Source: Acetobacteraceae bacterium (lineage in GTDB: Bacteria; Pseudomonadota; Alphaproteobacteria; Acetobacterales; Acetobacteraceae). From it: DNA of 64,000 nucleotides. The stretch lies in the NCBI GenBank assembly GCA_947455205.1, contig CANGNF010000009.1, forward strand, positions 13,659-77,658, written 5' to 3'. The notes under the pieces are model-generated. The model was given only the letters and a program-made list of their open reading frames with translations, had not been told where the DNA came from and did no database searches. The position numbers and the translations under genes are program-made. Shown here in pieces: positions 46,055-64,000 of this stretch (its first letter is position 1; each line of letters starts with the position of its first letter).

Positions 46055-46936
46055 ATGACGGCGGCGGTGGACCATTCGATCTGGAGCTTCTGCTTCGCCA
46101 AGGGCACGCTGCCGCGCGACTTCACGCAGGGGTCGCCGGTGGCGAGCAATGCCGGCACGCACGAGATCCCGATGATGATCTCGGCGATCGTTCCGGCCGG
46201 GCCGCAGCGCCGCGTCTTCCTGGTGGATACCGGTTTCGCCGGCGGTGATTCGATGACCGGCCGCCGCTTCGCCGATGTCGAGACGCCCCAGGAGATCCTG
46301 GCCAAGGTCGGCCTGGCGCCGGAGGATGTGGACACCATCCTGCTGACCCACCTGCACTTCGACCACGCCGGCAACCTGGACGCCTTCCCGCGCGCCGAGA
46401 TCATCCTGCAACGCAGCGAATACGAGTCCTGGCGCACCGCGCTGGCAGCGCTGCCGGATACCTCGGCGGGCAAGTCCTCCTGGGCGTTGTCCTCGCTCAA
46501 CCTCGACGACATCGCCACCTTCGAGCGCGCCATCGCCGCCGGCCGCGTCCGATTCGTGGAGGGCGATACGGAAGTGGCGCCCGGCATCACGCTGCGGCTG
46601 GAGGCCGAGAGCCACACCTTCGGCTCGCAATGGGTCGAAGTGGCGACGCCCGACGGCGCCTTCATCCTGGCCGGCGACGTGCTGGCCAGCTACCCGAACA
46701 TCGAGCGCATGTGGCCGCCCGGCTACCACCAGGGCAATGGCTGGAACCTGCTGCGCGGCTACAACCGCCTGCGCGCCACGGTAGGGGAGGACAAGCTGCA
46801 CCGGATCGTCCCCGGCCACGACATGCAGGTGTTCAGCCGCAACCCCAGCTGGGTCGCCGGCCGCAACCCGGTGGCCGAAATGCATGTGGCGCAGGGCGCC
46901 CGATCCTTCATTCCCTCGGCAGGAGCTTCCGCATGA
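46055..46936 (+). CDS. MBL-fold metallo-hydrolase (N-acyl-homoserine-lactonase-like)
   Basis: Track ORF 45119..46936 trimmed to ATG 46055 (AGGAGG 7 nt upstream). The HxHxDH motif appears as LLTHLHFDHAGN. Confidence 0.8.
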   Translation: MTAAVDHSIWSFCFAKGTLPRDFTQGSPVASNAGTHEIPMMISAIVPAGPQRRVFLVDTGFAGGDSMTGRRFADVETPQEILAKVGLAPEDVDTILLTHLHFDHAGNLDAFPRAEIILQRSEYESWRTALAALPDTSAGKSSWALSSLNLDDIATFERAIAAGRVRFVEGDTEVAPGITLRLEAESHTFGSQWVEVATPDGAFILAGDVLASYPNIERMWPPGYHQGNGWNLLRGYNRLRATVGEDKLHRIVPGHDMQVFSRNPSWVAGRNPVAEMHVAQGARSFIPSAGASA

Positions 46937-48132
46937 GCAACCTCACCAGGCGTACCCTGCTGGGCGCCAGCCTCGCTGCCCCGGCACTGGCCCGCGCGCA
47001 GTCGGGTCCGATCAAGATCGGCGACATCAACAGCTATACCGGCCAGGCTGCCTTCACCACGCCGTATCGCCACGGGCTGCAGCTGGCGCTGGCCGAGATC
47101 AACGCCGGCGGCGGTGTGCTGGGCCGGCCGCTGGAGCTGCTGCTGCGCGATGATGGCGGCAAGCCGGACGACGCGGTGCGCCACGCGGCCGAGTTGCATT
47201 CGTCGGAGAAGGTGGTGGCGCTGACCGGCACCTTCGCCTCCAACATCGGGCTCGCCGTGGGCGATTTCGCCAAGCGCAACAAGCTGCCCTTCCTGGCCGC
47301 CGAGGCGCTGTCGGACGCGCTGACCTGGCGCCAAGGCAACCGCTACACCTTCCGCACCCGCACCAGCACCTACATGCAGGCGGCGATGCTGGCGGAACAG
47401 GCGGCCAAGCTGCCGGCCAAGCGCTGGGCCGTGGTGGCGCCGAATTACGAGTTCGGCCTCTCCGCCACCGAGAGCTTCAAGAAACTGCTGAGCGCGGCGC
47501 GGCCGGATGTGGAATGGGTGGGCGAGCAGTTCCCCGCCTTCATGCGGCTGGAAGGCGGGCCGGTGGCGCAGGCGCTGCTGGCGCTGCGGCCGGACGCCAT
47601 GTTCAACGCCACCTTCGGGCCCGACCTGGCCCGCCTGGTGCGCGCCGGCAACGACATCGGCCTGTTCGAGCGCCGCAGCGTGTGCAGCGTGCTGACCGGG
47701 CAGCCGGAGTTCCTCGATCCGCTGGGCGACGAGGCTCCGGCCGGCTGGATCGTCACCGGCTATCCGTGGGAGCAGATCACCACGCCGGCGCACCAGGCTT
47801 TTGTCAGCGCGTATCGCGCGGCGGCGAAGGATACGCCGCGCGCGGGGTCGCTTAGCGGCTATGTCACGCTGCACGCCGTGGCGGCCGCGCTGAAGAAGGC
47901 CGGCGGCACCGGCGCCGAACAGTTCGTCGGTGCGCTGGAAGGCATGACCCTGCCAACGCCGCTGGGCCAGATCACCTTCCGCGCCAGCGACCACCAATCC
48001 ACGCTGGGCATGTATGTCGGCAAGATCGCGCTGCGCGGTGGCAAGGGCGTCATGGTGGATGCGACCTATGCCGATGGCGTGCGCTACCTGCCCAGCGACG
48101 CCGAGGTCCGCGCGATGCGGCCGCAGGATTGA
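46933..48132 (+). CDS. ABC substrate-binding protein, LivK/branched-chain-amino-acid type (orphan)
   Basis: Trimmed to ATG 46933 (ATGA overlap). Signal is MSNLTRRTLLGASLAAPALARAQ. Contains IKIGDINSYTGQAA...LALAEINAGGGVLGRPLELLLRDDG. Confidence 0.85.
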   Translation: MSNLTRRTLLGASLAAPALARAQSGPIKIGDINSYTGQAAFTTPYRHGLQLALAEINAGGGVLGRPLELLLRDDGGKPDDAVRHAAELHSSEKVVALTGTFASNIGLAVGDFAKRNKLPFLAAEALSDALTWRQGNRYTFRTRTSTYMQAAMLAEQAAKLPAKRWAVVAPNYEFGLSATESFKKLLSAARPDVEWVGEQFPAFMRLEGGPVAQALLALRPDAMFNATFGPDLARLVRAGNDIGLFERRSVCSVLTGQPEFLDPLGDEAPAGWIVTGYPWEQITTPAHQAFVSAYRAAAKDTPRAGSLSGYVTLHAVAAALKKAGGTGAEQFVGALEGMTLPTPLGQITFRASDHQSTLGMYVGKIALRGGKGVMVDATYADGVRYLPSDAEVRAMRPQD

Positions 48133-48142
48133 GGAGGACAGC

Positions 48143-49003
48143 ATGGCCGAGATCGTCTTCGCCGCCGGCATTCCGCATGCGCCCGCGGTTGTCGGCCTGT
48201 TCGACAAGGCACCGGATGAAGCGCGCGCCGTCGTCGCCGCCACCTTCGGCGCCGTGGGTCGCGCGCTGCGGGCGGCCAGGCCCGACGTGGTGCTGGTCTT
48301 CGCCAATGACCACCTGACCAATAGCCGCATCACCGCCTATCCGGACTTCATCATCGGCCATGCCGCCGCGCATGCCGGCCCGCATGAATGGTTCAAGGAA
48401 TGGATCGGCTGCCGCGACTGGGCGCTGCCGGGCGACCCCGAGGTGGCGCGCACGTTGTTCAAGGGCCTGACGAAGCGCGGCTTCCGCATGAATGCCGAAG
48501 CCGGGCCACTGAAGTTCGACGACAACCTCTCGGTGCCCACCGTGATGACGGAGTTGGACAGCACGACCATCCGCGTGGTGCCGATCCTGCAGAACTGCAC
48601 CGTACCGCCCTTCCCCGACGGCGCCCGCTGCTACGCGTTGGGCCAGGCGGTAGCGCGCTGCATCGCCGAGGATATGCCGGCCGGCCTGCGCGTGGCGCTG
48701 ATCGGCTCCGGCGGGTTGAGCCATGAGCCCGGCGGCGCGCGCTACTACAAGATCGACGAGGAATTCGACCAACTGTTCCTGAAGCTGGCGAGCGAGCCGG
48801 ACCACGCGGCCTTCATGCGCGAGATCACCATTCCCCGCATGGAGCAGGCCGGCCTCGGCGGCACCGCGGAGGTGCTGTCCTGGTTTATCGTCATGGGCGC
48901 CATCGGTCAGCGGCGTGGCGAGAGCTTCGGCTATACCGGCTGGCCCAGCTTTCGCTGCGGCATCGGCGGCGTGGTGTGGGATATGGCGAAGGAGGCCGCG
49001 TGA
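48143..49003 (+). CDS. Class III extradiol ring-cleavage dioxygenase, LigB-type catalytic subunit
   Basis: Trimmed to ATG 48143 (GAGGAGG upstream). Begins MAEIVFAAGIPHAPAV. Contains VFANDHL and GSGGLSHEPGG. Confidence 0.85.
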   Translation: MAEIVFAAGIPHAPAVVGLFDKAPDEARAVVAATFGAVGRALRAARPDVVLVFANDHLTNSRITAYPDFIIGHAAAHAGPHEWFKEWIGCRDWALPGDPEVARTLFKGLTKRGFRMNAEAGPLKFDDNLSVPTVMTELDSTTIRVVPILQNCTVPPFPDGARCYALGQAVARCIAEDMPAGLRVALIGSGGLSHEPGGARYYKIDEEFDQLFLKLASEPDHAAFMREITIPRMEQAGLGGTAEVLSWFIVMGAIGQRRGESFGYTGWPSFRCGIGGVVWDMAKEAA

Positions 49004-49326
49004 TGTCCTGGGAAGCCTACGACCCCAGCCTGGCCGCCCACGACCTGGTCCAGGACCTAAAGTGGGACCCGGCCTTGCGTGCGCTGTTCAAGCAGAACGA
49101 AGCCGCCGTGCTGGACCGCTACCCAACCATGCTGCCGGCCGAGCGCCGCGCCATTGAGCAGCGCGACTTCCGCGCGCTGTACGACCTGGGCATGCACCCC
49201 TATCTCGGCGGGCAGCTCTCCCGCTTCATCTGGGGCAACGACGCCGGCGGCGGCGCCATCGAGGCCTCCAACCGCCTGGTCGCCTCGCTGACCGGCAGCA
49301 CCGCCAGCATTCCGGAGAAGCCTTGA
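49003..49326 (+). CDS. LigA-like small subunit of the extradiol dioxygenase
   Basis: Trimmed to MSWEAYD (TGATG overlap). AERRAIEQRDFRALYDLGMHPYLGGQL fits the LigA pattern. Confidence 0.7.
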   Translation: MSWEAYDPSLAAHDLVQDLKWDPALRALFKQNEAAVLDRYPTMLPAERRAIEQRDFRALYDLGMHPYLGGQLSRFIWGNDAGGGAIEASNRLVASLTGSTASIPEKP

Positions 49327-50279
49327 TGGCCGCGCATCGCATCGACATCCAGCACCACATCCTGCCGCCGGACTATGTCCGCATCGCCGGGGAAGAGCGG
49401 ATCGGCCCGCTGATGGTCTCCGGCAAGACGCCGCCCTGGAGCCCGGAGCTTTCCTTGGAGGCGATGGAGCGCAACGGGATCGCCACCGCCGTCGTCTCCA
49501 TCTCGGCACCCGGCGTCTGGTTCGGCGATGCCGGCCAGGCGCGGGAGTTGGCGCGCGCGACCAACGAATACGCCGCCGACCTGCGCCGCCGCTTCCCCGG
49601 CAAGTTCGGCTTCTTCGCCAGCCTGCCGCTGCCGGATGTCGCCGCCAGCCTGGATGAGATCGCCTACGCGCTAGACGTGCTGCACGCCGATGGCACCTGC
49701 CTGATGACCAATTACGGCGGCCGTTACCCCGGCAGCGCCGAGTTCGCGCCGATCTACGCCGAGTTGAACCGCCGCGGTGCGTTGGCCTTCTTCCACCCCT
49801 GCGTCGGCCCGGCGCCGATGATGCCGCCCGGCCTGCCCGCGGCCACACTGGAATTCCCGTTCGACACCACGCGCGCCATTGCGGATCTGCTCTTCTCCGG
49901 CGTGCTGGCGAAGCACCGCAACATGCGCAGCATCTTCTCCCATGCCGGCGGCGCCGTGCCCTTCCTGGCGCAGCGCATCGCCCGGCTGGAACGCCGGCCG
50001 GAGTTCCGCGAGCAGGTGCCGGATGGCGTGATGGCAGAATTGGGCCGGCTGTACTTCGACGTCGCGCTCTCGGCCAATCCGCTGGCCTTCGGGCCGATGC
50101 TGCAGGTGATCCCGCCGGAGCAGGTGCTTTTCGCCAGCGACTATCCCTTCGCGCCGGAGGACACCATGACCGCGACGGTGAAGGGCCTCGGCGCACTTGG
50201 GCTGGATGCGGCGACGCTGGCGAAGATTGAACGCGAGAACGCGCTGCGGCTGATGCCGAACCTGATGGCGGGTGGCTGA
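49326..50279 (+). CDS. Amidohydrolase-2 family enzyme (ACMSD/LigI/LigJ-like decarboxylase, hydratase or lactonase)
   Basis: ATG 49326 (TGATG overlap; TTG 49323 is also possible). Contains IDIQHHILPPDY (metal HxH), FSHAGGAVP and ASDYPF. Confidence 0.85.
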   Translation: MAAHRIDIQHHILPPDYVRIAGEERIGPLMVSGKTPPWSPELSLEAMERNGIATAVVSISAPGVWFGDAGQARELARATNEYAADLRRRFPGKFGFFASLPLPDVAASLDEIAYALDVLHADGTCLMTNYGGRYPGSAEFAPIYAELNRRGALAFFHPCVGPAPMMPPGLPAATLEFPFDTTRAIADLLFSGVLAKHRNMRSIFSHAGGAVPFLAQRIARLERRPEFREQVPDGVMAELGRLYFDVALSANPLAFGPMLQVIPPEQVLFASDYPFAPEDTMTATVKGLGALGLDAATLAKIERENALRLMPNLMAGG

Positions 50280-50283
50280 CGCC

Positions 50284-51075
50284 ATGGACCTGCAGATCGC
50301 CGGCAAGGTCGCTGTTATCACCGGACCGGCCAAGGGCATGGGCGCCGCCATCACCCTCGCCTTTGCGCGGGAAGGCTGCGACCTGGTGCTGGCCGGGCGC
50401 GACATCGCCGCCATCGAGCCCGTCGCCGAGGAAGCCCGCGCGCTCGGCCGCCGCGTGCGCGTCAGCGCCTGCGACCTGATGGACACGGCGCAGTGCCAAG
50501 CGGTGGTGGACGAAGCCATCAAGGCCCTCGGCGGCATCGACATCCTGGTCAACGTCGCCGGTGGCGCCGGGCCGATGGGCAAGACCGGCTGGGAAACCAC
50601 GCGCGACGAGTTCGACGAGATCGTCACGCTGAACATGGCCGGCTGCTTCAACACCATGCGCGCGGTGCTGCCGCACATGATCGCGCGTGGCGAGGGCCGC
50701 ATCGTCAATGTCGGCGGCACCTTCGGCATGCGCGGCCGCGCCGGGCGCATGGCCTATTCCGCCAGCAAATGGGGTCTGCGCGGCATCACCAAGTCCATGG
50801 CGCTGGAAGCCGGGCCCCATGGCATCAACGTCAACCTGGTGGCGCCGGGCATGGTCGATGGCGAGCGCTTCCGCACCAAGGTGGTGCCAACGCTGATGGC
50901 GAAGCACGGCATCACCGAGGACGAAGCCATCCGGCGCCACGCCGAGGAATACGCGCTGCGCCGCATCACCGTGGACGCGGACGTGGCCAATGCCTGCCTG
51001 TTCCTCGCCTCCCCCGTCTCCCGCCAGATCACCGGCACCGACCTGCCGGTCGATGGCGGCTGGGCCATGCTGTGA
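50284..51075 (+). CDS. Short-chain dehydrogenase/reductase (SDR)
   Basis: Begins MDLQIAGKVAVITGPAKGMGAA. Contains NVAG and the catalytic YSASK. GTG 50272 is an alternative start. Confidence 0.88.
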   Translation: MDLQIAGKVAVITGPAKGMGAAITLAFAREGCDLVLAGRDIAAIEPVAEEARALGRRVRVSACDLMDTAQCQAVVDEAIKALGGIDILVNVAGGAGPMGKTGWETTRDEFDEIVTLNMAGCFNTMRAVLPHMIARGEGRIVNVGGTFGMRGRAGRMAYSASKWGLRGITKSMALEAGPHGINVNLVAPGMVDGERFRTKVVPTLMAKHGITEDEAIRRHAEEYALRRITVDADVANACLFLASPVSRQITGTDLPVDGGWAML

Positions 51076-51089
51076 ACAAGGACGCCGCC

Positions 51090-52508
51090 ATGCTTGCCGA
51101 CCTGGTCATCCATAACGGCCGCATCGTCCACCCCGATGGCATCGTGGACGCCAGCCTGACCATCGCCGGCGGCCGCATCCTGGCCATCGGCGCGCCGGAA
51201 GCCATGCCGGCCGCGAAGGAAACGCTGGACGCCAGCGGCCTGCACATCCTGCCCGGCGCCATCGATGTGCACGTGCATTTCCGCGACCCCGGCTATACGC
51301 ACAAGGAGGACTGGGACACCGGCACCACCTCCGCGGCCTTCGGCGGCGTCACCACCGTCTTCGACATGCCGAACACCGTGCCCGCCACCGCCAACGCCCA
51401 GGCGCTGGCCGAGAAACACGCCATCGCCAGCAGCCGCGCCCGCATCGACTACGGCCTCTACGCCTATCTCGGCGAAAGCAGCATCGAGCAGGTGCCCGAG
51501 ATGGTCGCCGGCGGCATCATCGGCTTCAAGCTCTATATGGGGGAGACCTTCGGCAAGCTGGCCACGCCCTCCACCGGCGCCATGCTGGAAGCCTTCGAGG
51601 TCGTGGCGCCCACCGGCAAGCGCATCTCCCTGCATGCCGAGACCGCCAGCATCATGGCGCGGCGGGAAGCGCGGATGCGCGCCGCCGGCCGCACCGACGC
51701 GCTGGCCCACCTGGCCGCCCGCCCCGCCGTGGTCGCGACGGAAGCCGTCAGCCGCGCCGCCGTGCTGGCGGAATGGACCGGCGCGCGCATCCACATCCTG
51801 CACATCTCCTCCGCTGCCGAGTTACGCCCGCTGGCGGAAGCCAAGGCCCGCGGCGTCGACATCACCGGGGAGACCTGTCCGCACTACCTGTTCCTCTCGG
51901 CCGACGACTACGCCCGCTGCGGTGGCGTCATCCGCGTCAACCCGCCGGTGCGGGAAGCCGACAACCAGGCGCCGCTGTGGAACGCGCTGATGGACGGCAC
52001 GGTGGACATGATCGCCACCGACCACGCGCCGCACGCCCCGCCGGAGAAGACCCGCAACGACATCTGGAGCGTGGATTGCGGCTTCCCGGGCGTGGAGACG
52101 CAGATGTCGCTGATGCTGAGCCAGGTCAGTGCCGGCCGCGCCACCATCTGCGACTATGTCCGCTGGAGCGCCTACAACCCCGCGCGCAACTGGGGCCTGT
52201 TCCCGCGCAAGGGCACCATCCAGCCCGGCGCCGATGCCGACCTGGCGCTTGTGGACCTGGGCCAGGACATGGTGCTGGATGACGCGGCGCTGCATTCGCG
52301 CTCCAAGATCTCGCCCTGGCATGGCCGCCGGGTGAAGGGCCTGCCGATCCACACCATCGTGCGTGGCCGCTTCATCCTGCGCAATCGCGCGCTGGTGGAG
52401 GGCACCGAGGGCTGGGGCCAATCGGTCCATGCCATCCAGCAGATGCCGCCGGCGCAGCCGCGCAACACCGACAAGACCATGCAGGCCATCGTCCAACTGC
52501 CCGGCTGA
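51090..52508 (+). CDS. Dihydroorotase/allantoinase/hydantoinase-type cyclic amidohydrolase
   Basis: Begins MLADLVIHNGRIV. Contains PGAIDVHVHFRDPG...GGVTTVFDMPNT and ATDHAPH. An alternative GTG at 51072 overlaps the SDR stop. Confidence 0.85.
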   Translation: MLADLVIHNGRIVHPDGIVDASLTIAGGRILAIGAPEAMPAAKETLDASGLHILPGAIDVHVHFRDPGYTHKEDWDTGTTSAAFGGVTTVFDMPNTVPATANAQALAEKHAIASSRARIDYGLYAYLGESSIEQVPEMVAGGIIGFKLYMGETFGKLATPSTGAMLEAFEVVAPTGKRISLHAETASIMARREARMRAAGRTDALAHLAARPAVVATEAVSRAAVLAEWTGARIHILHISSAAELRPLAEAKARGVDITGETCPHYLFLSADDYARCGGVIRVNPPVREADNQAPLWNALMDGTVDMIATDHAPHAPPEKTRNDIWSVDCGFPGVETQMSLMLSQVSAGRATICDYVRWSAYNPARNWGLFPRKGTIQPGADADLALVDLGQDMVLDDAALHSRSKISPWHGRRVKGLPIHTIVRGRFILRNRALVEGTEGWGQSVHAIQQMPPAQPRNTDKTMQAIVQLPG

Positions 52509-52574: not shown

Positions 52575-53456
52575 ATGGCAATCCGCACGGTGGGCGTGGT
52601 CGGGCTCGGCAACATGGGTCTCGGCATGGCGGCAACGCTGGTGCGCGCGGGCTTCACGGTGCTGGGCACCGATATCAGCGCCGCGCGCCGCGCCCCGGCG
52701 GAGGACGCCGGCATCGGCTTTCTGGACAGCCTGGTGGACCTGCAGCAGCAGGCCGATGCACTGGTCTTCTCGCTGCCCTATGCGCGGGATGTCGAGGCCG
52801 TGGTCACCGCGCCCGGCGGCCTGCTGGCGCGGCGCGACCGCAAGGTGGTTGTGATCGACACCTCCACCTCGGACCCCGGCACCTCTCGCCGCCTGGCCGC
52901 GCTGCTGGCGGAGGCGGGGCACGCGCTGCTGGACGCGCCGGTCAGCGGCGGCCCGGCCGGCGCCGCCACGGGCAGCCTGACCATGATGATCGGCGGCGAG
53001 GCCGCTGACCTGGCGCTGGTGCAGCCGGTGGTCGCCGCGCTCTCCGCCACCGCTCTTCATGTCGGGCCTTCCGGCGCCGGCAACATCGCCAAGCTGGTCA
53101 ACAACATGCTCGTCGCCGCCCACCTGATCACCACCGGGGAAGCGATGCGCCTTTCGGAAGCCGCCGGCCTGCCCGCCGAGGCGGTGCTGAAGGTGGTCAA
53201 CGCCGCCACCGGCCGCAGCGCGGTCAGCGAGGCGATGCTGCCGCGCTGGGTGCTGCCCGGCAGCTTCGACAGCGGCTTCTCCGCCGGTCTGATGCGGAAG
53301 GATGTCCGCCTGGCCGCCGAACTGGCGCAGCAGACCGGCACCAACCTGCCGCTTTCGGCCGAGGTCGCGCGCATCTGGGACAGCACCCGCGGGCGCATCG
53401 CCGATACCGAGGACTTCACCCACATGGCCGACCACCGCACCGACCGGGACTACTGA
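52575..53456 (+). CDS. NAD(P)-dependent 3-hydroxyisobutyrate/tartronate-semialdehyde reductase-family dehydrogenase
   Basis: Begins MAIRTVGVVGLGNMGLGMAATL. Contains LDAPVSGG and GAGNIAKLVNNML. Confidence 0.88.
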   Translation: MAIRTVGVVGLGNMGLGMAATLVRAGFTVLGTDISAARRAPAEDAGIGFLDSLVDLQQQADALVFSLPYARDVEAVVTAPGGLLARRDRKVVVIDTSTSDPGTSRRLAALLAEAGHALLDAPVSGGPAGAATGSLTMMIGGEAADLALVQPVVAALSATALHVGPSGAGNIAKLVNNMLVAAHLITTGEAMRLSEAAGLPAEAVLKVVNAATGRSAVSEAMLPRWVLPGSFDSGFSAGLMRKDVRLAAELAQQTGTNLPLSAEVARIWDSTRGRIADTEDFTHMADHRTDRDY

Positions 53457-55054: not shown

Positions 55055-56191
55055 ATGACGCGCATTCGCAGCATTGAGGTGGTGCCGGTCGAGGCACCGG
55101 TCGCCGTTCCCTATGGCTCCTCGCGCGGGCTGGTGCCCAAGCGCCAGGCCGGCATCATCCGGCTGCGGACCGAGGACGGCATCGAAGGCATCGGCGAGGC
55201 CTGGGGCCCGCCCGGCGTCACCCGCGCCTACCTGGAGACGGTGCAGGCCCGCTTCATCGGCGCGGAGTTGTCGGCGCAGCGCGGCGTGGCGCAGCAGGTG
55301 CTGGCCAGCCACTACCACTTCGGCACCGCCAACGGCCTCATCGCGCTGCTGGGCGGCATCGACATCGCGGCACATGACGCGCTGGGCAAGCGCTACGGCG
55401 TCAGCGTGGCGGAACTCATCGGCGGGCGGCTGCGCGAGCAGATACCGGTCTACGGCAGCGGCGGCTACTTCACGGCGGATGACGACCAGGACGCCGCGCT
55501 GGCCCGCCAGCTGGAACGCGCCGTCGCCGCCGGCCATACCGCGCACAAGATCAAGATCGGTCGCAACACCCGGCAGGATGCGGCGCGCTGCGCGCTGGCG
55601 CGGCGCATCATCGGCCCGGATGCGCTGCTGACCGTGGACGGCAACGGCAACATGACCGCCGAGGGCGCGCTGGCCAGCATGCGCGCCATCGCGGACAGCG
55701 ACATCCACTGGTACGAGGAACCGGTCGCGCCGCAGGACTGGGCCGGCTACGCGCAGCTGCGGGACCGCGCGCCCATCCCGATCGCGGCCGGGGAGGCGCA
55801 TTACGCGCTGTTCGAGCATCGCCGGCTGATCGACGGCAGACTGGCCGCCGTGCTGCAACCGGACCTGACGCTGTGCGGCGGCTTCGCCGTGGCACAGACC
55901 ATCGGCGCGCTGGTGAATGCGGAGCATCTGCGCCTGTCGCCGCATTGCTGGGGCAGCGGCGTCGGGCTGGCCGCGGCGTTGCAGCTGATGGCGGCGCAGC
56001 CCGCCTACCCCGCCGGCGACCACGTGCCGCTGCCGGCGCTGCTGGAATACGATACCGGCGACAACCAGCTGCGCGACGGCGTGCTGGCGGAACCGCTGCG
56101 CTACCACGCGGGCATGCTGCAGGTGCCGCGCGGCCCCGGCCTCGGCATCACCCTGGACGAGGCCGCGCTGCGCCGCTTCGCGCCGGCATGA
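55055..56191 (+). CDS. Enolase-superfamily enzyme (mandelate racemase/muconate lactonizing family, KxK subgroup)
   Basis: Trimmed to ATG 55055. Begins MTRIRSIEVVPVEAPV. Contains AHKIKIG, VDGNGNM, YEEPV and AAGEA. Confidence 0.85.
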   Translation: MTRIRSIEVVPVEAPVAVPYGSSRGLVPKRQAGIIRLRTEDGIEGIGEAWGPPGVTRAYLETVQARFIGAELSAQRGVAQQVLASHYHFGTANGLIALLGGIDIAAHDALGKRYGVSVAELIGGRLREQIPVYGSGGYFTADDDQDAALARQLERAVAAGHTAHKIKIGRNTRQDAARCALARRIIGPDALLTVDGNGNMTAEGALASMRAIADSDIHWYEEPVAPQDWAGYAQLRDRAPIPIAAGEAHYALFEHRRLIDGRLAAVLQPDLTLCGGFAVAQTIGALVNAEHLRLSPHCWGSGVGLAAALQLMAAQPAYPAGDHVPLPALLEYDTGDNQLRDGVLAEPLRYHAGMLQVPRGPGLGITLDEAALRRFAPA

Positions 56192-57137
56192 GCGAGGCGC
56201 TGCTGCGGGTGGAGGGACTGTCCGTCGCCTTCCGCGGCGGCGCGATCCAGGCGGTGGACGGCGTGGACCTGGCGCTGCACGCCGGCGAGACCCTGGCCGT
56301 GGTGGGTGAAAGCGGCAGCGGCAAGAGCGTGACCGCGCTGGCGACGCTGCGCCTCTTCGCGCGGGAGGACGACGTCCGCACCGCCGGGCGCATCCTGTTC
56401 CAGGGCGAGGACCTGCTGGGCCTGCCGGAAGCCGAACTACGCAAGCGGCGCGGGCGCGACATCGGCATCATCTTCCAGGACCCCGGCGCCAGCCTGAACC
56501 CGGTCTTCAACATCGGTCGCCAGATCACCGAGGTGCTGCGCCGCCACAAGCACCTGCCGCGCGCGGAAGCCGAGGCGGAGGCGCTGCGGCTGCTGCGCGA
56601 GGTCGGCATCAGCGACCCCGAAGGCCGGCTGCGCAGCTACCCGCACCAGCTTTCCGGCGGCATGCGGCAGCGGGTGATGATCGCCATCGCGCTGGCCTGC
56701 GGGCCGCGGGTGCTGATCGCGGACGAGCCGACCACGGCGCTGGACGTGACCATCCAGGCGCAGATCCTCGGCCTGCTGAAGGCGCTGCAGGCGGCGCATG
56801 GCATGGCGCTGCTGTTCATCACGCATGACCTGGAACTGGTTGGCGACATCGCCGACCGCATCGCGGTGATGTATGCCGGCCAAGTGGTGGAAAGCGGCCC
56901 GGCCGCCGAGGTGCTGGCCGACCCGCGCCACCCCTATACCCGCGCCCTGCTGGACTGCCGGCCGCATCGCGGTGCCGATGGCGAGGTCCACTTCGCCGCC
57001 ATTCCCGGCACGCCGCCGCGTGGCGTCTTCCCCGGCGGCTGCCGCTTCGCCGCGCGCTGCGCCAGGCGCGCGGCTGGATGCGAGCAGCCGCAACCGCTGC
57101 TGACGGAGGGCGCGCGCGCGGTGCGCTGCTGCCGGGC

Positions 57138-57141
<4 letters not shown>
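56188..57141 (+). CDS. ABC transporter ATP-binding protein (DppD/OppD-like)
   Basis: ATG 56188 (ATGA overlap). Contains [16 protein letters not shown] and [11 protein letters not shown]. Confidence 0.9.
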
Positions 57142-58068
<927 letters not shown>

Positions 58069-58088
<20 letters not shown>

Positions 58089-58953
58089 CCTGCTCGTCGT
58101 CGGCGCCGGCGGCTTCGTCGGCGCCGCCTGCACCCGCGCCCTGCTGGCGGCGGGGCACCGTGTGTTCGCGCTGGAACCCGTGCGGCCGCAGGCGGTGCCG
58201 GGGGGGGCCACGCTGCTGCCTGGCGGCCTGGCCGATGCCGACGCGGCGCTGGCGGAAGCGCGGCCGGATTGCGTGCTGAACTTCGCCGCTTTCTCGGCCG
58301 GCCCCGTTGGCCTGGCCCGTTCCGGCGAGGCGTCACCGGACCGCGCGCTGGAAGTGAATGCGCTGGGCTTCCACGCCCTGCTGCGCGCCGCGCACCAGGC
58401 CGGCGTGAAGCGCGTGCTGTGGTCCTCCTCCACCGTCGCCATCGGCCCCGCCACGCGGGAGATGCGCGAGGACGAGGACGTCCCCTGCGCCCCCGTCACC
58501 AGCTACGGCCTTTCCAAGCTGGTGGCCGAACAGGTGGCCGCATTCTTCCGTCGCACCGCGGGCATGGACATCACCGGCATCCGCCTACCGCTGATCCTGG
58601 GCCCCGGGCTGTGGTACGACGGCGCGGCGGCGGCGGTGAAGCGGCTGGCCGCGGGGCAGCCGGCAGCGGTCGGCGCGCCGGACCTGCCCTTCGACGCCGC
58701 CGATGTGCGCGATGTCGCCCGGCTCTTCGCCTTGCTGGTGGCGCGGCCCGGCTTGGCGCCGCTGTACCACTTGGCTGGCACCACCACGACCTGGCGGCAG
58801 ATCGCCACGCTCTGCGGCGCCGAATTGCAGCCGGCGCCGGCGGGCATCGCCTGGCCCCTCGTCAGCCAGGCGCGGCTGGAACAGGATACCGGCTTCACCT
58901 GCACCCACGACCTGGGCGCCACGCTGCGCGCCCTCCGGGAGGATCGCGCATGA
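58069..58953 (+). CDS. NAD-dependent epimerase/dehydratase-family protein (extended SDR)
   Basis: GTG start overlapping the upstream gene by 20 nt. Contains LLVVGAGGFVGAACTRALLAAGHRV. The catalytic YxxxK appears as SYGLSK. Confidence 0.75.
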
Positions 58954-59411
58954 GCATCGAGCAACGCCTGGCCGAGTTGGGCATCACCCTGCCGCCGCCA
59001 CGCGCGCCGGTCTTCGGCTATGTGCCGGTGGCGGTGGAGGGCGGCCTTGCCTGGGTCTCCGGGCAACTGCCCTGGGCCGGCGACGGGCTGCTGGCCAAGG
59101 GGCGCCTGGGCGCCGAGGTGGATGTGGAGACCGGCCGCGCCGTGGCCCGCTGCTGCCTGCTGAACGGGCTTGCCGTGCTGAAGGAAGCGCTGGGTTCGCT
59201 GGACCGCGTGCAGCGCATCGTCAAGGTCGTCGGCTTCGTCAGCTCCGCCCCAGGCTTCTACGACCAGCCGGCGGTGGTGGACGGTGCCTCGCACCTGCTG
59301 ACCGAGCTGTTCGGCGAGGCAGGGCGCCATGCGCGCTCGGCCGTCGGCGTCGCCGCGCTGCCGCGCGATGTGCCGGTGGAAGTTGAATTCGTCGCCGCCA
59401 TCCGCGGCTGA
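58950..59411 (+). CDS. RidA/YjgF-family enamine/imine deaminase
   Basis: ATG 58950 (ATGA overlap). Begins MSIEQRLAELGITLPPP. Contains ARSAVGVAALPRDVPVEVEF. Confidence 0.85.
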   Translation: MSIEQRLAELGITLPPPRAPVFGYVPVAVEGGLAWVSGQLPWAGDGLLAKGRLGAEVDVETGRAVARCCLLNGLAVLKEALGSLDRVQRIVKVVGFVSSAPGFYDQPAVVDGASHLLTELFGEAGRHARSAVGVAALPRDVPVEVEFVAAIRG

Positions 59412-59424: not shown

Positions 59425-61020
59425 ATGACCGAGTTCGACATCTCGCGCCGCGCGGCGCTCTCGCTGGCATTGGCAGGCCTTGCGCTGCCGGCTTCGGCAC
59501 AGCCGGCGGCCGGCGGCATCGACCCGCTGCTGTATGGCCCGACCGACCCCAAGGCCAAGCGCGGCGGCAAGATCACTGTCGGCAACCTGGTGGAACCGCC
59601 GGCGATGGACCCCTTCCGCCAGGCCGCGGATGCGCGGGTGCGCGTCTCGGTGCTGATGTACCAGGGCCTGTTCTTCGAGGACCAGGCCGGCGTCGCCCGG
59701 CCGCTGCTGGCCGAGAGCGCCACGCCCGCCACCGATGGCAAGAGCTGGACCTTCAGGCTGCGCCGCGGCGTCAAGTTCCATACCGGCGCGGCGATGACCT
59801 CGGCCGATGTGAAGTACAGCTACGACTTCATGCGCAACCCGGCCAATGGCTCGCCCGGCGCCGGCGACCTGTCCTCGGTGGCGAGTATCGAGGCGCCGGA
59901 CGACCACACCGTGGTGTTCCACCTGGCCAAGCCGAATTCGGCGCTGCCGATGACGCTGACCAACAAGTACGGCGCGGTGGTGCCCAAGGGCTTCCTGGAC
60001 GACGCCAATTCCGGGCCGCGGATGAACGAGATCTCGGTCGGCACCGGGCCGTTCAAGCTGAAGCAGTTCCGCCCCAACAGCGTCATCGTCATGGAACGCT
60101 TCGCCGACTACTGGCAGCCGGGCGTGCCCTACCTGGACGAGATCACCTTCGCCGCCATGCCCAACAGCGCGGCCATGGTGGTGGGACTGCAGTCCCGCCG
60201 CATCGACCTCGGCGTCTTTTCCCGCCCGCAGGACACGCAGGCGCTGGCCAATGCGCCGGGGGTGGAGGTGCATCGCTGGCCATCGCTGGACCAGAAGTCG
60301 CTCGACCTCGACTGCAACTACGCGCCGATCAAGGATGTGCGGGTGCGCCAGGCGCTGGCCCTGGCGATCGACAAGAAGCAGGTGATGGACGCCTCCATCG
60401 CCGGCTACGGCAAGGTCATCGGCACCATGGTCGCGGGCATGGAATCCGCCTGGGGCGTGCCGCAGGACCAGCTGGCCTTCCAGCACCCGGACCTGGAGAA
60501 GGCGCGCGGCCTGCTGCGCGCCGCCGGCCACCCGGATGGCCTGGATATCGAGCTGACGACCATCATCGGCTATGACTGGATGGACGCGGCGGCGGTGACC
60601 ATCAGCGAACAGCTGAAGCGGATCGGCGTACGGATCAGCATCCGCAAGCTGGACCTGGGCGTCTGGGTCCGCAACCTGCGGGCGCGAGAGCTGGGCTTCA
60701 CCTTCAACGACTGGGGCACCATCCCAGACCCGGCGCTGCTGTTCTTCCGCCACTTCCATTCGGTGCCGGCGGGCGCCGACTTCCGCAACTGGAACAACGC
60801 CCGCGCCGACGCGCTGCTGGACCGCGGCCAGGAAACCGCCGACCCCGCACAGCGCCGCGCGATCTACACCGAGTTCCAGAAGCTGCTGGCGGAGGAGGTG
60901 CCGACCATCATGCTGTTCTCGGCCGACAAGCTGACCGCCAACCGCACCCGGCTGAAGAACTACCAGCAGCACGGCACCGGCTGGTATTTCGGTCTCGCGA
61001 AAGCATGGGTGGAGGGCTGA
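59425..61020 (+). CDS. ABC transporter substrate-binding protein, family 5
   Basis: ATG 59425 (AAGGAGG upstream). Signal is MTEFDISRRAALSLALAGLALPASAQ. Contains LMYQGLFFEDQ...LLAESATPATDGKSWTFRLR. Confidence 0.88.
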   Translation: MTEFDISRRAALSLALAGLALPASAQPAAGGIDPLLYGPTDPKAKRGGKITVGNLVEPPAMDPFRQAADARVRVSVLMYQGLFFEDQAGVARPLLAESATPATDGKSWTFRLRRGVKFHTGAAMTSADVKYSYDFMRNPANGSPGAGDLSSVASIEAPDDHTVVFHLAKPNSALPMTLTNKYGAVVPKGFLDDANSGPRMNEISVGTGPFKLKQFRPNSVIVMERFADYWQPGVPYLDEITFAAMPNSAAMVVGLQSRRIDLGVFSRPQDTQALANAPGVEVHRWPSLDQKSLDLDCNYAPIKDVRVRQALALAIDKKQVMDASIAGYGKVIGTMVAGMESAWGVPQDQLAFQHPDLEKARGLLRAAGHPDGLDIELTTIIGYDWMDAAAVTISEQLKRIGVRISIRKLDLGVWVRNLRARELGFTFNDWGTIPDPALLFFRHFHSVPAGADFRNWNNARADALLDRGQETADPAQRRAIYTEFQKLLAEEVPTIMLFSADKLTANRTRLKNYQQHGTGWYFGLAKAWVEG

Positions 61021-61024
61021 CGCC

Positions 61025-61969
61025 CTGGCGCTCTTCCTGGCGCGCAGGCTGGGCGCGGCGCTGATCGCGGCGCTGCTGTCCAGCCTGGCGGTCTTTCTGC
61101 TGCTGCGCGCGGTGCCCGGCGACATCGTCGGGCAGATGCTGGGCCAGACCGGCACCGACCGCGCGGCCGAGCAGGCGCTGCGCGGCTTCTTCGGGCTGGA
61201 CCGCCCGCTGTGGCGGCAGTTCGGCGACTGGGTCGGCGCCACGCTGACCGGCGACCTGGGCCGCAGCTGGTACCAGGGCCGCGCGGTGTGGACCATGGTG
61301 TGGGAAGCCTTCCTGGTCACCGCCGAGCTCGCCTCCGCAACCCTGGTACTGGCTACGCTGGTCGGCGTGCCGCTGGGCGTGGTCGCGGGCATCGTGCATG
61401 GCTCCCGGTTGGATGCGGCGATCCAGGGCTTCAACCTGGTCGGGCTATCCGCGCCGGTGTTCTGGCTGGGGCTGATGCTGCTGGTCGGCGCCAGCGCGGT
61501 GCTGGACTGGTCGCCGCCCTTCGCCTGGTCCGGTCCGACCGAGGACCTGGAGGACAACATCAGCATCCTGGTGCTGCCGGTGCTGTCGCTGGCGGTGCTG
61601 CAGGCCGCCGCCTATGGCCAGTTCGTGCGCGGGCTGATGGTGGAGGAGTTGGGCCGCGACTATATCCGCGCCGCCCGCGCCAAGGGCATGACGCCCTTCG
61701 ACATCCATTTCCGCCACGCCCTGGCCAATGTGATGGTGCCGCTGGTCACCTTCATGGGGCTGGTGCTGATCCAGATCCTCGGCGGCGTGGTGATCATCGA
61801 GAGCCTGTTCTCCCTGCCCGGCCTCGGGCGGCTGATCCTGTCGGGCATCCAGGGGCGCGACTATCCGGTGGTGCAGGGGGCGCTGTTCTTCGTGGTGCTG
61901 ATCGCCACCACGGTGAACCTGGGGGTGGACCTGCTCTATGGCCTGCTGGACCCGAGGCTGAAGCCATGA
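61025..61969 (+). CDS. ABC transporter permease (DppB-like), probably CTG-initiated
   Basis: The track starts at GTG 61112 (MPGDIVGQ...). The same frame is open from 60956 and encodes the expected TM1, LALFLARRLGAALIAALLSSLAVFLLLRAVPGD. There is no ATG, GTG or TTG before 61112. CTG 61025 has GGAGGG 8 nt upstream. Confidence 0.75.
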   Translation: MALFLARRLGAALIAALLSSLAVFLLLRAVPGDIVGQMLGQTGTDRAAEQALRGFFGLDRPLWRQFGDWVGATLTGDLGRSWYQGRAVWTMVWEAFLVTAELASATLVLATLVGVPLGVVAGIVHGSRLDAAIQGFNLVGLSAPVFWLGLMLLVGASAVLDWSPPFAWSGPTEDLEDNISILVLPVLSLAVLQAAAYGQFVRGLMVEELGRDYIRAARAKGMTPFDIHFRHALANVMVPLVTFMGLVLIQILGGVVIIESLFSLPGLGRLILSGIQGRDYPVVQGALFFVVLIATTVNLGVDLLYGLLDPRLKP

Positions 61970-62754
61970 CCGCCTGGCGTCTTGGCCTGGCGCTGGCCTT
62001 GGTCTTCGCCGTGCTGCTGTTGGCGCCGGGGCTGGTGGCGCCGCAATCGCCGCTGGCGCTGGACCCCGCACGGGCGTTGCAGGCGCCCAGCGCGGCGCAT
62101 TGGTTCGGCACCGATGATGTCGGCCGCGACGTCTTTTCCCGCGTGGTGCATGGCACGCGCATCACGCTCGGCCTGGTCACCTTTTCGCTGCTGCTGTCGC
62201 TGCTGATCGGCGGCGGGCTCGGCGTGGTCGCGGGCTTCGCCGGTGGCTGGTTCGACCTTGGCCTCGCCCGGCTGGCAGACATGGTGCAGACCTTCCCGCC
62301 CATCATCGCCGGGGTGATGATCACCGGCGTGCTCGGCCCCGGCGCCGCCAACCTGGTGCTGGCGCTCAGCGTCATCTACCTGCCCAGCTTCTTCCGCATC
62401 GGCCGCTCCGCCGCGCTGGCGGAGGCGCAGCTGACCTATGTGGAGGCCGCCCGCGCCGCTGGCTTCGGCGAGGCCTCGATCCTGCTGCGCCAGGTGCTGC
62501 CCAACACGCTGCCGGTGCTGGTGCTGAACTTCGTCATCATCTTCCCGCTTGCCTTGCAGATCGAGGCGGCGCTCGGCTTCCTCGGCCTGGGCGTGGTGCC
62601 GCCGATGCCGGATTGGGGCGCCATCCTGGAGCAGGGCAAGAACTTCATCCTGGTGGCGTGGTGGGTGTCGCTCTGGCCCGGCGTCTTCGTCCTGGCCTCG
62701 GCGCTGGCCATGACGCTGCTGGGCCACGGCCTGCGCGCCAGGTTGGGCCGCTGA
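61966..62754 (+). CDS. ABC transporter permease (DppC-like)
   Basis: ATG 61966 (ATGA overlap). Contains HWFGTDDVGRDVFSRV and YVEAARAAGFGEASILLRQVLPN. Confidence 0.9.
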   Translation: MTAWRLGLALALVFAVLLLAPGLVAPQSPLALDPARALQAPSAAHWFGTDDVGRDVFSRVVHGTRITLGLVTFSLLLSLLIGGGLGVVAGFAGGWFDLGLARLADMVQTFPPIIAGVMITGVLGPGAANLVLALSVIYLPSFFRIGRSAALAEAQLTYVEAARAAGFGEASILLRQVLPNTLPVLVLNFVIIFPLALQIEAALGFLGLGVVPPMPDWGAILEQGKNFILVAWWVSLWPGVFVLASALAMTLLGHGLRARLGR

Positions 62755-63356
62755 TGCGCCTGGCGCTGCATGACCTGGCCGTGGCCGGCACGGCGACGCT
62801 GCCGGCGGGCGTGCATGGCCTGTACCTGCGGCGCGGCGCGCTGCTGGTGGATGGCGTGCCGCTGGCGGAGGACAACGCCGTGCTGGCGCCGGCCGGGGCG
62901 CGGCTGCAGGGCGAGGCCGAAGCCTGGCGCTTCACCGTGGCCACCGCGCCGGAGGATCGCGCCACGCTGATCCTCTCCCACGCGCTGCCGCGCGACCCTA
63001 CCCAGCCCTTCGTGCTGCGGCTGGACCGGGTGGATTTCAGCGAGAACGGCGTCACGCCGAAGCACGGGCATGCCGGCCCCGGCATCCGCCGCCTGGTCTC
63101 CGGCCTGCTGCTGGCTGAGTTGGGCGAGGAGGCGCGCCGGATCCTGCCCGGCCAGGCCTGGCACGAGACCGGCGCCGAGCCGGTGGTCGGCCGCGTGCTG
63201 GCACCGGGCACCGCCTTCATCCGCGCCATGGTGCTGGACGCCGCGCTGCTGGGGCAGCCGACCTTTCGCGCCTGGACGTCGGAGGAGGCGGCCAAGCCGC
63301 GCGGCGTCGGCTACCGGCTTTTCCTCGACCGCATCTGCCAGTTGGAGACCGCATGA
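62754..63356 (+). CDS. Hypothetical protein with a C-terminal cupin-like domain
   Basis: ATG 62754 (TGATG overlap). The C-terminal half, VDFSENGVTPKHGHAGPGIRRLVSGLLLAELGEEARRILPGQAWHETGAEPV, resembles cupin motifs. The N-terminal half is unassigned. Confidence 0.5.
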   Translation: MRLALHDLAVAGTATLPAGVHGLYLRRGALLVDGVPLAEDNAVLAPAGARLQGEAEAWRFTVATAPEDRATLILSHALPRDPTQPFVLRLDRVDFSENGVTPKHGHAGPGIRRLVSGLLLAELGEEARRILPGQAWHETGAEPVVGRVLAPGTAFIRAMVLDAALLGQPTFRAWTSEEAAKPRGVGYRLFLDRICQLETA

Positions 63357-64000
63357 CCACCAGCGACAGCCTGACACCGGACGAAGCCGAGGTGCAGTTC
63401 AACCCGCAGCGTAGCGTGCCCAACAGCGCCGACTTCGGCGCCCGGCGCGCGCCGCTGAACCAGGCCGCGCTGGCCCACCCGCGCCGCGTGGCCGACCTGG
63501 CCTGGGCGCCGCAGGGGCTGAACAGCCTGGACCTCTACCCGCCCGAGGGCAGCGGCCCCTGGCCGGTGCATGCCTTCATCCATGGCGGCTACTGGCGGGC
63601 GCAGGACAAGCGCAACTTCGCCTTCACCGCCACCGAGCTGAACAAGCGCGGCATTCTGGTGGCGGTGCTGAACTACGACCTCTGCCCGGCGGTGACGCTG
63701 GACGGCACGGTGGCCTCGGCGCTGGGTGGCCTGGAATGGCTGCTGCGGCACGCGCCGGAGCACGGCGGCGACCCTTCGCGCTTCACTTTGTCGGGCCATT
63801 CTGCCGGCGCGCACCTGGTGGCGGCGGCGCTGGCGACGGACTGGGCGGCGCGCGGCCTACCGGCCAACCCATTCAGCGGCGCGCTGCTGACCAGCGGCAT
63901 CTACAACCCCGCCCCGGCCATGCTGACCACCGTGAACGCGGACCTGCACCTGACGCCGGAGATTGCCGCCCGGCACGACTACGAGGCGCTGGCGCCGCGC
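63353..64000 (+). CDS. Alpha/beta hydrolase, arylformamidase (Afmid-type)-like. N-terminal 216 codons only; continues past the window end.
   Basis: Not in the ORF track because there is no stop inside the window. ATG 63353 (ATGA overlap). Contains AFIHGGYWRAQDK and the nucleophile elbow LSGHSAGAHL. It is a paralog of 1486..2322. Confidence 0.8.
   Translation, partial: MTTSDSLTPDEAEVQFNPQRSVPNSADFGARRAPLNQAALAHPRRVADLAWAPQGLNSLDLYPPEGSGPWPVHAFIHGGYWRAQDKRNFAFTATELNKRGILVAVLNYDLCPAVTLDGTVASALGGLEWLLRHAPEHGGDPSRFTLSGHSAGAHLVAAALATDWAARGLPANPFSGALLTSGIYNPAPAMLTTVNADLHLTPEIAARHDYEALAPR

Follow-up and report, generated by a model that had tools for sequence, protein, structure and literature searches.

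Layout of the array and its module borders

The window analyzed here, a stretch of 64,000 nucleotides from an Acetobacteraceae bacterium (assembly GCA_947455205.1, contig CANGNF010000009.1), carries from position 46055 to its end an array of 19 consecutive genes on the + strand (g01 to g19), which include the genes for the catalytic (LigB-type, g03) and the small (LigA-like, g04) subunit of an extradiol dioxygenase together with genes for hydrolases, dehydrogenases, an enolase-superfamily enzyme and transport proteins. The initial annotation had described the array as one pathway for an N-containing aromatic or heterocyclic substrate. Comparison with related genomes shows that it is, very probably, a lineage-specific head-to-tail concatenation of three independently inherited catabolic modules, here termed module A (g01-g07, with the upstream partners u1 and u2 on the - strand), module B (g08-g09) and module C (g10-g19). 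All coordinates refer to the window, and all array genes lie on its + strand.

The gene map was derived from a codon-usage model trained on the window and from publicly available gene predictions for the source contig (L009), a 74-kb contig of an ENA metagenome assembly; raw lists of open reading frames (ORFs) are crowded with shadow ORFs because the G+C content of the window is about 70%. Both sources concur on the 19 genes from 46055 onward, as initially annotated, and each of the gene families that had been named was recovered, by Pfam in all cases except the 'cupin-like' g18, which was placed via its homologues, a structural model and Foldseek. The last gene, g19, runs past the window end; in full, as seen on the source contig, it encodes 284 amino acids, and by arithmetic it ends at about 64207 in window coordinates. 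It is followed by a convergent SpoIIE-type gene, and the array is therefore complete at 19 genes. This is the longest same-strand run in the window, in which the other runs comprise 7-9 genes. Such runs are commonplace in bacteria, and one operon cannot be concluded from them alone.

The genes are closely spaced, as had been stated. Junctions within modules are overlaps or gaps of at most 13 nt, whereas the modules are separated by gaps of 66 nt (52509-52574, the A/B junction) and 64 nt (54985-55048, the B/C junction), the two largest of the array and those already singled out in the initial annotation. An apparent gap of 91 nt (61021-61111) before g16, the gene for the first permease of module C, vanishes when the conserved CTG start codon at 61025 is taken; the resulting N-terminus is conserved with the 314-amino-acid permeases of two other genomes that carry module C (L095 and L096). 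Tools restricted to ATG, GTG and TTG starts, as well as some public gene calls, place the start of g16 at 61112 and thereby produce the false gap.

The module borders were located by nucleotide comparison. Two sister Acetobacteraceae metagenome-assembled genomes (L015 and L016), whose LigB proteins are 96% identical to that of the window, match the window by blastn at about 90% identity; the match begins at about 37.9 kb and breaks off at 52506/52508, at the g07 stop codon. After g07 the window, L015 and L016 each carry different genes. At the other border, the stand-alone copy of module C in L095 matches the window DNA at about 80% identity from 55051, the start of g10, onward. Both breaks in synteny coincide with the 66- and 64-nt gaps, which therefore mark the borders of the modules. 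The idea of a simple insertion of modules B and C into a shared backbone was rejected, as the DNA 3' of g19 on the source contig is not matched in L015 or L016 beyond g07.

The same separation is apparent in a wider sample. Neighborhoods were counted over 80 related LigBA loci (tblastn with the array proteins and clustering of the called genes), those of C-N hydrolases over 77. Orthologues of g08-g19 were not detected by tblastn in any of the 80 loci: g10, g13 and g18 had no match there, and the remainder of g08-g19 gave matches at the level of paralogues only, mostly with 20-53% identity. No homologue of g10 was found on L019, a related Acetobacteraceae locus, and no second adjacency of modules A and C was found. 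Modules B and C are each conserved independently (see below), and the initial view of one 19-gene pathway is thus not upheld.

Other signals along the array are less distinctive. In module A the genes have a G+C content of 0.68-0.70; most genes of modules B and C reach 0.72-0.75, with g15-g17 (0.68-0.71) as the exceptions, and the G+C content at third codon positions is 0.88-0.95 in every array gene; there is therefore at most a slight compositional difference between the modules. Scanning of positions 45000-64000 revealed no promoters, and terminator-like sites occurred at the level expected from shuffled sequences, both results being uninformative for an alphaproteobacterium of 70% G+C. Within the A/B junction neither a terminator or promoter consensus nor an Rfam match was found. 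An Rfam scan of positions 41000-64000 for riboswitches and other RNAs gave no match above threshold. A sub-threshold match to the COG3860 RNA motif (24.6 bits vs. a gathering cutoff of 42.5, E 0.078) lies inside the coding sequence of g11, at 56514-56559, and is most likely due to chance.

The LigBA dioxygenase and module A

The product of g03 (48143..49003) matches PF02900 over the full domain (E 1.2e-32, residues 7-268 of 286). Across an alignment with 13 diverse homologues (60-84% identity), its residues H12, H57, H194 and E243 do not vary; H12, H57, E243 and H194 align with H12, H61, E242 and H195 of LigB (PDB 1B4U), i.e., with the Fe(II) triad and the catalytic histidine. The metal ligands, named beforehand in the initial annotation as a point on which its reading could fail, are thus present. 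The downstream gene g04 (49000..49326), which overlaps g03 by 4 nt, encodes a small LigA-like subunit (PF07746, a weak match of 30.4 bits vs. a cutoff of 25.3). With this adjacent small subunit the pair is predicted to have the two-subunit LigAB architecture. Judged by its sequence, g03/g04 is a class III LigB-type extradiol dioxygenase of two-subunit LigAB architecture with a predicted intact active site.

A search with g03 yielded 745 relatives at E ≤1e-10 among 8000 scored candidates, and 192 LigBA places were counted in species-representative genomes, with carriers that include Acetobacteraceae, Reyranella, Bradyrhizobium/Xanthobacteraceae, Rhodopseudomonas and Burkholderiales. A LigA-like ORF follows LigB on the same strand, at a distance of 0-110 nt, in all 80 loci. 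Among the matches listed, all named homologues of g03 are labeled 'hypothetical' or carry a generic family name. None of the NCBIfam equivalog cutoffs was reached by g03, g04 or g05, in agreement with the earlier view of an uncharacterized extradiol dioxygenase cluster, and literature searches found no published description of this cluster. As far as literature and family-model searches show, the LigBA subfamily is uncharacterized.

Two more distant, annotated copies on plasmids illustrate the range of the subfamily and have C-N hydrolase surroundings like those described below. On the Corynebacterium glutamicum plasmid p48A (L183, 4063-11179), genes for IclR, HyuA, HyuB, LigB (48% identity to g03), a LigA-like protein and a formamidase are flanked by recombinase genes. 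As this plasmid is of Gram-positive origin, the LigBA-formamidase unit crosses phyla, and it may be mobile. On a Bosea plasmid, creatininase, isochorismatase, LIV and FCD genes adjoin those for LigA, LigB, an isochorismatase and an amidohydrolase.

Across the subfamily, hydrolases acting on C-N bonds are the partners that occur most often. Members of such families occur within a few genes of LigB in 56 of the 77 loci, and at most three genes downstream in 36 of them. In 28 loci a formamidase of the FmdA/AmdA type is encoded only a few genes away from LigB, often directly 3' of LigA, followed in frequency by creatininase-like (15 loci), DUF1989 (14) and isochorismatase-like (11) proteins; Amidohydro_3 and Cyclase/KynB-type hydrolases recur as well. 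A divergent GntR/FCD regulator is present in 31 LigBA loci, often together with LIV-type ABC transporters. That C-N hydrolases habitually flank LigBA fits the cleavage of a hydroxylated N-heterocycle. The substrate class proposed in the initial annotation, an N-containing ring compound, accordingly stands as the best reading for module A, on the basis of this 77-locus context, but it does not extend to the array as a whole.

In the window, LigBA is accompanied by seven further genes. Upstream of the array and divergent from g01 lies u1 (45074..45913, - strand), which encodes a creatininase-family metal hydrolase (PF02633, E 3.5e-43). It scores about 50 bits against solved creatinine amidohydrolases, has homologues in 16 of the 80 LigBA loci and is a candidate cyclic-amide hydrolase or deformylase of module A. 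Next to it, likewise divergent from the array, u2 (43485..45062, - strand) encodes a solute-binding protein assigned by Pfam to SBP_bac_5; its homologues (75-93% identity) adjoin the creatininase-like gene in L015, L016 and L018-L020 and co-occur with LigBA in these Acetobacteraceae relatives. The first gene of module A, g01 (46055..46936), encodes a hydrolase of the metallo-beta-lactamase fold (PF00753), with the best PDB match to 8X78 ('Glyoxylase, beta-lactamase superfamily II', 265 bits) and about 50 bits at most to lactonases; homologues occur in 8 of the 80 loci. It is followed by g02 (46933..48132), a gene for a LivK-type solute-binding protein (PF13458, Peripla_BP_6, E 9e-69; best PDB match 3I45, 457 bits), which among the 80 loci is common to L015, L016 and L018 only. 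Genes for a matching LIV permease or ATPase are missing from the immediate surroundings of g02. Both 8X78 and 3I45 are very close solved relatives whose names say little about function, and any ligands in these structures could point to the substrate class.

Directly 3' of LigA, g05 (49326..50279) encodes an Amidohydro_2 protein (PF04909). Its best PDB match is to the uncharacterized 2F6K (126 bits), followed by IDCase (71 bits), human ACMSD (67 bits), LigW and LigW2 (about 60 bits) and LigJ (21 bits), and on these similarities it is placed in the ACMSD/IDCase/LigW decarboxylase branch rather than with LigI or LigJ. A g05 homologue is present in 16 of the 80 loci, always directly 3' of LigA. 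Positions aligned with the ACMSD motifs FVHPW, FAHGGGA, GTDYPF and GRI are kept. The metal-binding motif HxH (49326-49360) reads QHH in the window and in its Acetobacteraceae relatives L015-L020 and HHH in most of the relatives compared (L015-L042); the change may mean altered metal binding or altered chemistry. Module A is completed by g06 (50284..51075), which by Pfam encodes a classical short-chain dehydrogenase/reductase (SDR) below all NCBIfam cutoffs, and g07 (51072..52508), which by Pfam and NCBIfam encodes a cyclic amidohydrolase of the allantoinase/dihydroorotase/hydantoinase type (Amidohydro_1). Against allantoinase models, g07 scores marginally above the cutoff of TIGR03178 (366.7 vs. 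357.85) and below that of PRK06189 (381 vs. 631), and it falls below the cutoff of dihydroorotase models (371 vs. 482). Among the LigBA loci, g06 and g07 are confined to the window, L015 and L016; g06 is a lineage-specific addition to module A.

Bacterial routes for pyridine-ring opening provide functional parallels. PydA, the 3,4-dihydroxypyridine (3-hydroxy-4-pyridone) dioxygenase of the mimosine pathway in Rhizobium sp. TAL1145, is a PF02900 protein (PMC7356986); this LigB-family enzyme has been assigned to pyridine-ring cleavage, which is followed by a hydrolase, PydB (PMC7356986, PMC3637104). The nearest genetically studied relative of g03 that was found, PydA aligns with it over the full length (109 bits), and both carry a C-terminal Cys-Gly motif. 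To our knowledge, no LigA-type partner of PydA has been reported. PydA contains an insertion of about 45 residues, and its motifs DDHFENH and EWICGM, which served as PydA-specific primer sites, are absent from g03, where ANDHLTNS and SFRCGIGG are aligned with them; g03 was therefore rejected as an orthologue of PydA and is a relative only. The hydroxypyridine route of KpiC and KpiB includes a hydrolase, KpiB, that acts on the N-formyl product (PMC7356986), and the isochorismatase-like hydrolases include several enzymes for N-rich compounds (PMC12625717).

The order of dioxygenase, N-formyl deformylase and amidase seen in NicX-NicD-NicF (nicotinate) and in KpiC-KpiB (4-hydroxypyridine) resembles the gene content around the LigBA family, and PydA/PydB follow the same logic of a dioxygenase and then a deformylase or amidase. 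NicF is an isochorismatase-type amidase. In known hydroxypyridine routes, ring cleavage by a dioxygenase leads directly to a deformylase or amidase step, and these parallels support the N-heterocycle reading of the LigBA context. No sequence relationship is implied by them for NicX and KpiC, whose dioxygenase folds are unlike that of g03, being aminopeptidase-like and Amidohydro_1, respectively (PMC7356986).

The solved proteins that are nearest to g03 point in another direction, namely to the LigAB protocatechuate (PCA) 4,5-dioxygenase of Sphingobium SYK-6 (PDB 1B4U/1BOU; LigB, 81 bits with a profile) and to gallate dioxygenases of the DesB/GalA type (67 bits). Module A might accordingly be a lignin-type variant of PCA/gallate 4,5-cleavage for an N-free hydroxybenzoate, with g05 as a LigW-like decarboxylase, to which its score of about 60 bits against the 5-carboxyvanillate decarboxylases LigW and LigW2 would correspond, and with g02 as an aromatic-acid binder, a common role of LivK-type proteins. 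The systems have in common a PF02900 subunit with the His/His/Glu triad and the catalytic histidine, a separate, adjacent LigA-type subunit and an Amidohydro_2 gene in the cluster. The relationship is distant, however: g03 remains far from the cutoffs of PCA 4,5-dioxygenase (PRK13372, 92.6 vs. 837) and gallate dioxygenase (PRK13367, 88.3 vs. 412), LigB precedes LigA here, and by Pfam the array lacks equivalents of the downstream enzymes LigC, LigI, LigJ, LigK and LigU, the LigJ match of g05 being the low one given above. The pairwise score of g03 to PydA exceeds its profile score to LigB, two values that are not fully comparable, having been obtained with different methods. The neighbors are C-N hydrolases instead of enzymes for ring-fission products, and carbocyclic meta-cleavage has no use for the formamidases, amidases and cyclic-amide hydrolases that recur there. 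We consider a lignin-type function of module A unlikely.

The same hydrolases also invite the opposite suggestion, that LigBA cleaves no ring and that the cluster acts purely by hydrolysis on a cyclic amide or ureide that is not aromatic and resembles creatinine, hydantoin or allantoin, with LigBA serving as an isomerase or other metalloenzyme. The families of the neighbors do include several cyclic amidohydrolases (creatininase-like, allantoinase/dihydroorotase-like, HyuAB and isochorismatase-like), and no hydroxylase that would produce a diol is encoded nearby. Yet the full 2-His-1-Glu Fe(II) site plus the catalytic histidine is invariant across the family, the small LigA partner is always retained, and PydA provides a precedent for heterocycle cleavage by a LigB-type enzyme. 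This is the least probable of the explanations considered here.

The reading that we favor for module A remains the cleavage of a hydroxylated N-heterocycle, an assignment of the substrate that we hold tentatively and with slightly less than even confidence. In the route that this would imply, a hydroxylated N-heterocycle (a pyridone, pyridinediol or pyrimidine-like compound, possibly carboxylated) would be bound by the periplasmic binding proteins and imported, and LigBA would cleave the ring beside vicinal oxygen functions. The ring-fission product, an N-acyl, N-formyl or ureido compound, might then be decarboxylated or hydrated by g05 and dismantled by the metal hydrolases u1 (creatininase-like), g01 (metallo-beta-lactamase fold) and g07 (allantoinase/dihydroorotase-like), with a redox step provided by the SDR g06. 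Extended to the subfamily, LigB-LigA(-Amidohydro_2) would be an unrecognized, widespread two-subunit system dedicated to hydroxylated N-heterocycles, which feeds N-formyl or amide products to formamidase, creatininase-like and isochorismatase-like hydrolases; this generalization is possible but somewhat doubtful. For g01-g07 and the upstream partners, the narrower claim of an undescribed LigAB-centered cluster for an N-containing ring compound survives, and the initial interpretation is to this extent partly supported.

Modules B and C

Module B consists of g08 (52575..53456), assigned by Pfam to a HIBADH-type beta-hydroxyacid dehydrogenase (TIGR01692, 207 vs. a cutoff of 291.6), and g09 (53458..54984), an NAD(P)-dependent aldehyde dehydrogenase (PF00171). 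The nearest families of g09 are betaine-aldehyde, aminobutyraldehyde and HpaE-type dehydrogenases, in each case below the cutoff; its best NCBIfam scores were those to betaine-aldehyde dehydrogenase (481 vs. a cutoff of 669) and HpaE (426.8 vs. 638), with 2-hydroxymuconic semialdehyde dehydrogenase (TIGR03216) at 356.7 vs. 693.25. A scan with g09 (56-69% identity) covered 29 metagenome loci, and in at least 23 of them a g08 homologue immediately precedes that of g09; the usual neighbors are a LysR regulator, an M20 peptidase/amidohydrolase and DUF3100 membrane proteins; g08-g09 is an independent conserved pair. It would act as a generic oxidation pair, converting a hydroxyacid to an aldehyde and further to an acid. 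A few loci (L104, L120 and L125) show the pair beside Dpp-type ABC transporters or a Rid gene. At L120 and L125 it adjoins binding proteins that are 57-58% identical to u2 of the window. At L104 its neighbors are a Rid protein (46% identity to g14), a probable amidase, judged by eye from its amidase-signature motif, and a probable amidohydrolase.

Module C begins with g10 (55049..56191), assigned by Pfam to an enzyme of the enolase superfamily (MR_MLE). All NCBIfam models remained below cutoff for g10, and the best PDB matches were 4GGB/4HPN (207 bits) and the galactonate dehydratase 5OLC (189 bits). We take 4GGB/4HPN to be the D-galactarolactone cycloisomerase (Gci) of Agrobacterium, and D-galactarolactone cycloisomerase is also the name given to g10 homologues by JGI. 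Next are g11 and g12 (56188..58088), for Opp/Dpp-type ABC ATPases by Pfam and NCBIfam, whose position is kept in all copies of the cassette, and g13 (58069..58953), for an extended SDR of the Epimerase family (PF01370), which scores at most 57 bits against any solved protein and 31-44 bits against uronate dehydrogenase (Udh). The product of g14 (58950..59411), present in every cassette copy, belongs to the Rid/YjgF family (PF14588; 130 bits to 3D01 and 126 bits to PA0814) and is a putative imine/enamine deaminase. The importer is completed by g15 (59425..61020), for a solute-binding protein assigned by Pfam to SBP_bac_5 that among solved proteins is closest to AgaA (6HLX, 168 bits) and then to peptide and glutathione binders, and by g16 and g17 (61025..62754), for ABC permeases identified by Pfam. 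AgaA binds the opine agropinic acid.

The penultimate gene, g18 (62754..63356), has no Pfam match. Its AlphaFold model is all-beta (pLDDT 96.9), the Foldseek matches are all bicupins or cupins, remote and with TM values of 0.5-0.65, and some of its homologues carry weak Cupin_2 (PF07883) matches, g18 itself being below Pfam detection. On the predicted fold, a double-stranded beta-helix, g18 is assigned to the cupin superfamily as a bicupin-like protein. The family is small (117 clusters), with invariant residues H104, H106, E138, R89, D91 and R92, and the members examined in context, those of five cassette copies, sit inside the g10-g19 cassette. Both module C and the array close with g19 (63353..64000, the window end), which encodes an alpha/beta-hydrolase (Abhydrolase_3/BD-FAE by Pfam) and is last in all cassette copies.

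The ten genes recur in the same order between unrelated flanks in Siccirubricoccus sp. KC 17139 (L095), in Falsiroseomonas sp. (L096), in a metagenome lineage with 90% identity to the window (L179/L180) and in a further metagenome-assembled genome (L181); no dioxygenase is present with the cassette in these four contexts. In L095 the cassette lies near Tn7-like TniB/TniQ genes (6191-8178), and in L096 near an IS3-type transposase (16530-17841). There are hints that the cassette moves between genomic sites. A more distant homologue of g10 (P0220, 64% identity) is found in an unrelated context, and conservation of the cassette is therefore limited to closer relatives, with about 80% identity or more.

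Module C would thus form a self-contained cassette for uptake and catabolism, in which an Opp/Dpp-type importer with an AgaA-like binder is combined with enzymes. Judged by family resemblance, its probable substrate is a small, polar conjugate of the amino-acid or sugar-acid kind, opine-like, Amadori-like or peptide-like, or an amino-sugar acid. The Agrobacterium systems are similar in part: g10 is related to 4GGB/4HPN, g13 is an SDR of the Epimerase family like Udh, and g15 is related to AgaA. The scores are modest, however (207, 31-44 and 168 bits, respectively), and, unlike the oxidative uronate pathway Udh-Gci-KdgD-KGSADH, the cassette has no KdgD/DHDPS-family gene, while its Rid protein, bicupin and esterase are without counterpart there.

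The independent histories of modules B and C bear directly on the claim that all 19 genes form one operon for a single new aminoaromatic or N-heterocycle pathway, in which the aldehyde dehydrogenase, the RidA protein and the arylformamidase-like hydrolase would process the LigBA product. One strand, gaps of 66 nt at most and terminator- or promoter-like signals that do not rise above chance all agree with that proposal, catabolic operons are known to arise through module recruitment, and on paper the families amount to a dioxygenase, an ACMSD-related protein, a semialdehyde dehydrogenase, a deaminase and a formamidase. This had suggested a parallel to the amn (2-aminophenol) and nba/kynurenine (3-hydroxyanthranilate) routes, with which the array does have in common an extradiol dioxygenase followed by an ACMSD-related Amidohydro_2 protein and, somewhere, genes for an aldehyde dehydrogenase, a Rid-family protein and an alpha/beta-hydrolase. 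The arrangement is nevertheless confined to one population, and its close relatives stop at g07. The aldehyde dehydrogenase belongs to module B, the Rid protein and the esterase belong to module C, and elsewhere neither module is accompanied by a dioxygenase, g14 and g19 being fixed in the cassette; the resemblance to amn/nba is therefore coincidental, arising from adjacency. Moreover, g09 is far under the cutoffs for ring-fission semialdehyde dehydrogenases, g05 is distant from ACMSD and has QHH instead of HxH, and the genes of the 4-oxalocrotonate branch are absent from the array, as the initial annotation had noted. That annotation had also counted ring cleavage of the LigAB type as a difference from amn. 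The assignment of g03/g04 to this type holds, but the contrast is weaker than implied, AmnB itself being a LigB-superfamily enzyme. A single 19-gene pathway is very unlikely.

Weight and significance of the three-module explanation

Taken as a whole, the juxtaposition of three modules in one Acetobacteraceae lineage, not a single pathway, with the functions proposed above, is the best explanation of the array and one that we regard as reasonably probable. The gene map, the protein families, the intact dioxygenase site, the borders of the modules and their independent distribution are established by the comparisons, whereas for all three modules the substrates and the reaction orders are ones that we infer.

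Several observations weigh against this explanation or parts of it. The tight same-strand packing without recognizable terminators leaves room for co-transcription, and also for the possibility that module A has functionally recruited modules B and C in this lineage; the location of g08-g09 beside Dpp transporters or a Rid gene in a few loci makes a working link between modules B and C possible. The copy of module A in the window is without the GntR regulator, isochorismatase, Amidohydro_3 protein and LIV permease and ATPase typical of its relatives, and the pathway may therefore be incomplete or different. No hydroxylase able to make a vicinal diol is encoded in this copy. As the first histidine of the HxH motif of g05 is glutamine in its clade, the chemistry may differ from decarboxylation of the ACMSD type. 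Among solved proteins, the dioxygenase is most similar to LigAB and the gallate dioxygenases, enzymes of the lignin type, and the identity of about 32% between g03 and PydA is approximate, the PydA sequence having been machine-read, with evident reading errors, from a supplementary alignment of PMC3637104.

As a single pathway of 19 genes, the array would amount to a remarkable new route for aminoaromatics, and splitting it prevents the misassignment of functions across modules. If LigBA does cleave hydroxylated N-heterocycles, it would be the second LigB-type class after PydA among the few pyridine/pyrimidine ring-opening dioxygenases. The same reading, if true, would aid the annotation of many genomes, the subfamily being common in soil Alpha- and Betaproteobacteria, and the widespread LigBA system would represent a new common route for the mineralization of ring nitrogen by soil bacteria. 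For the discovery of substrates, the g10-g19 cassette, in which an orphan bicupin is conserved, offers a clean and portable target. Uncharacterized catabolic clusters of this kind are abundant, and neither the LigBA subfamily nor the cassette overturns current understanding. What is new is limited to the LigBA subfamily with its C-N hydrolase context and to the portable uncharacterized cassette.

The region upstream of the array contains four genes on the - strand, which encode proteins of the creatininase (u1), SBP_bac_5 (u2), TctC and alpha/beta-hydrolase families. An amidase-signature gene at 40326-41570 is present in the window and in L015 and missing from L016, and is a local indel within otherwise collinear DNA.

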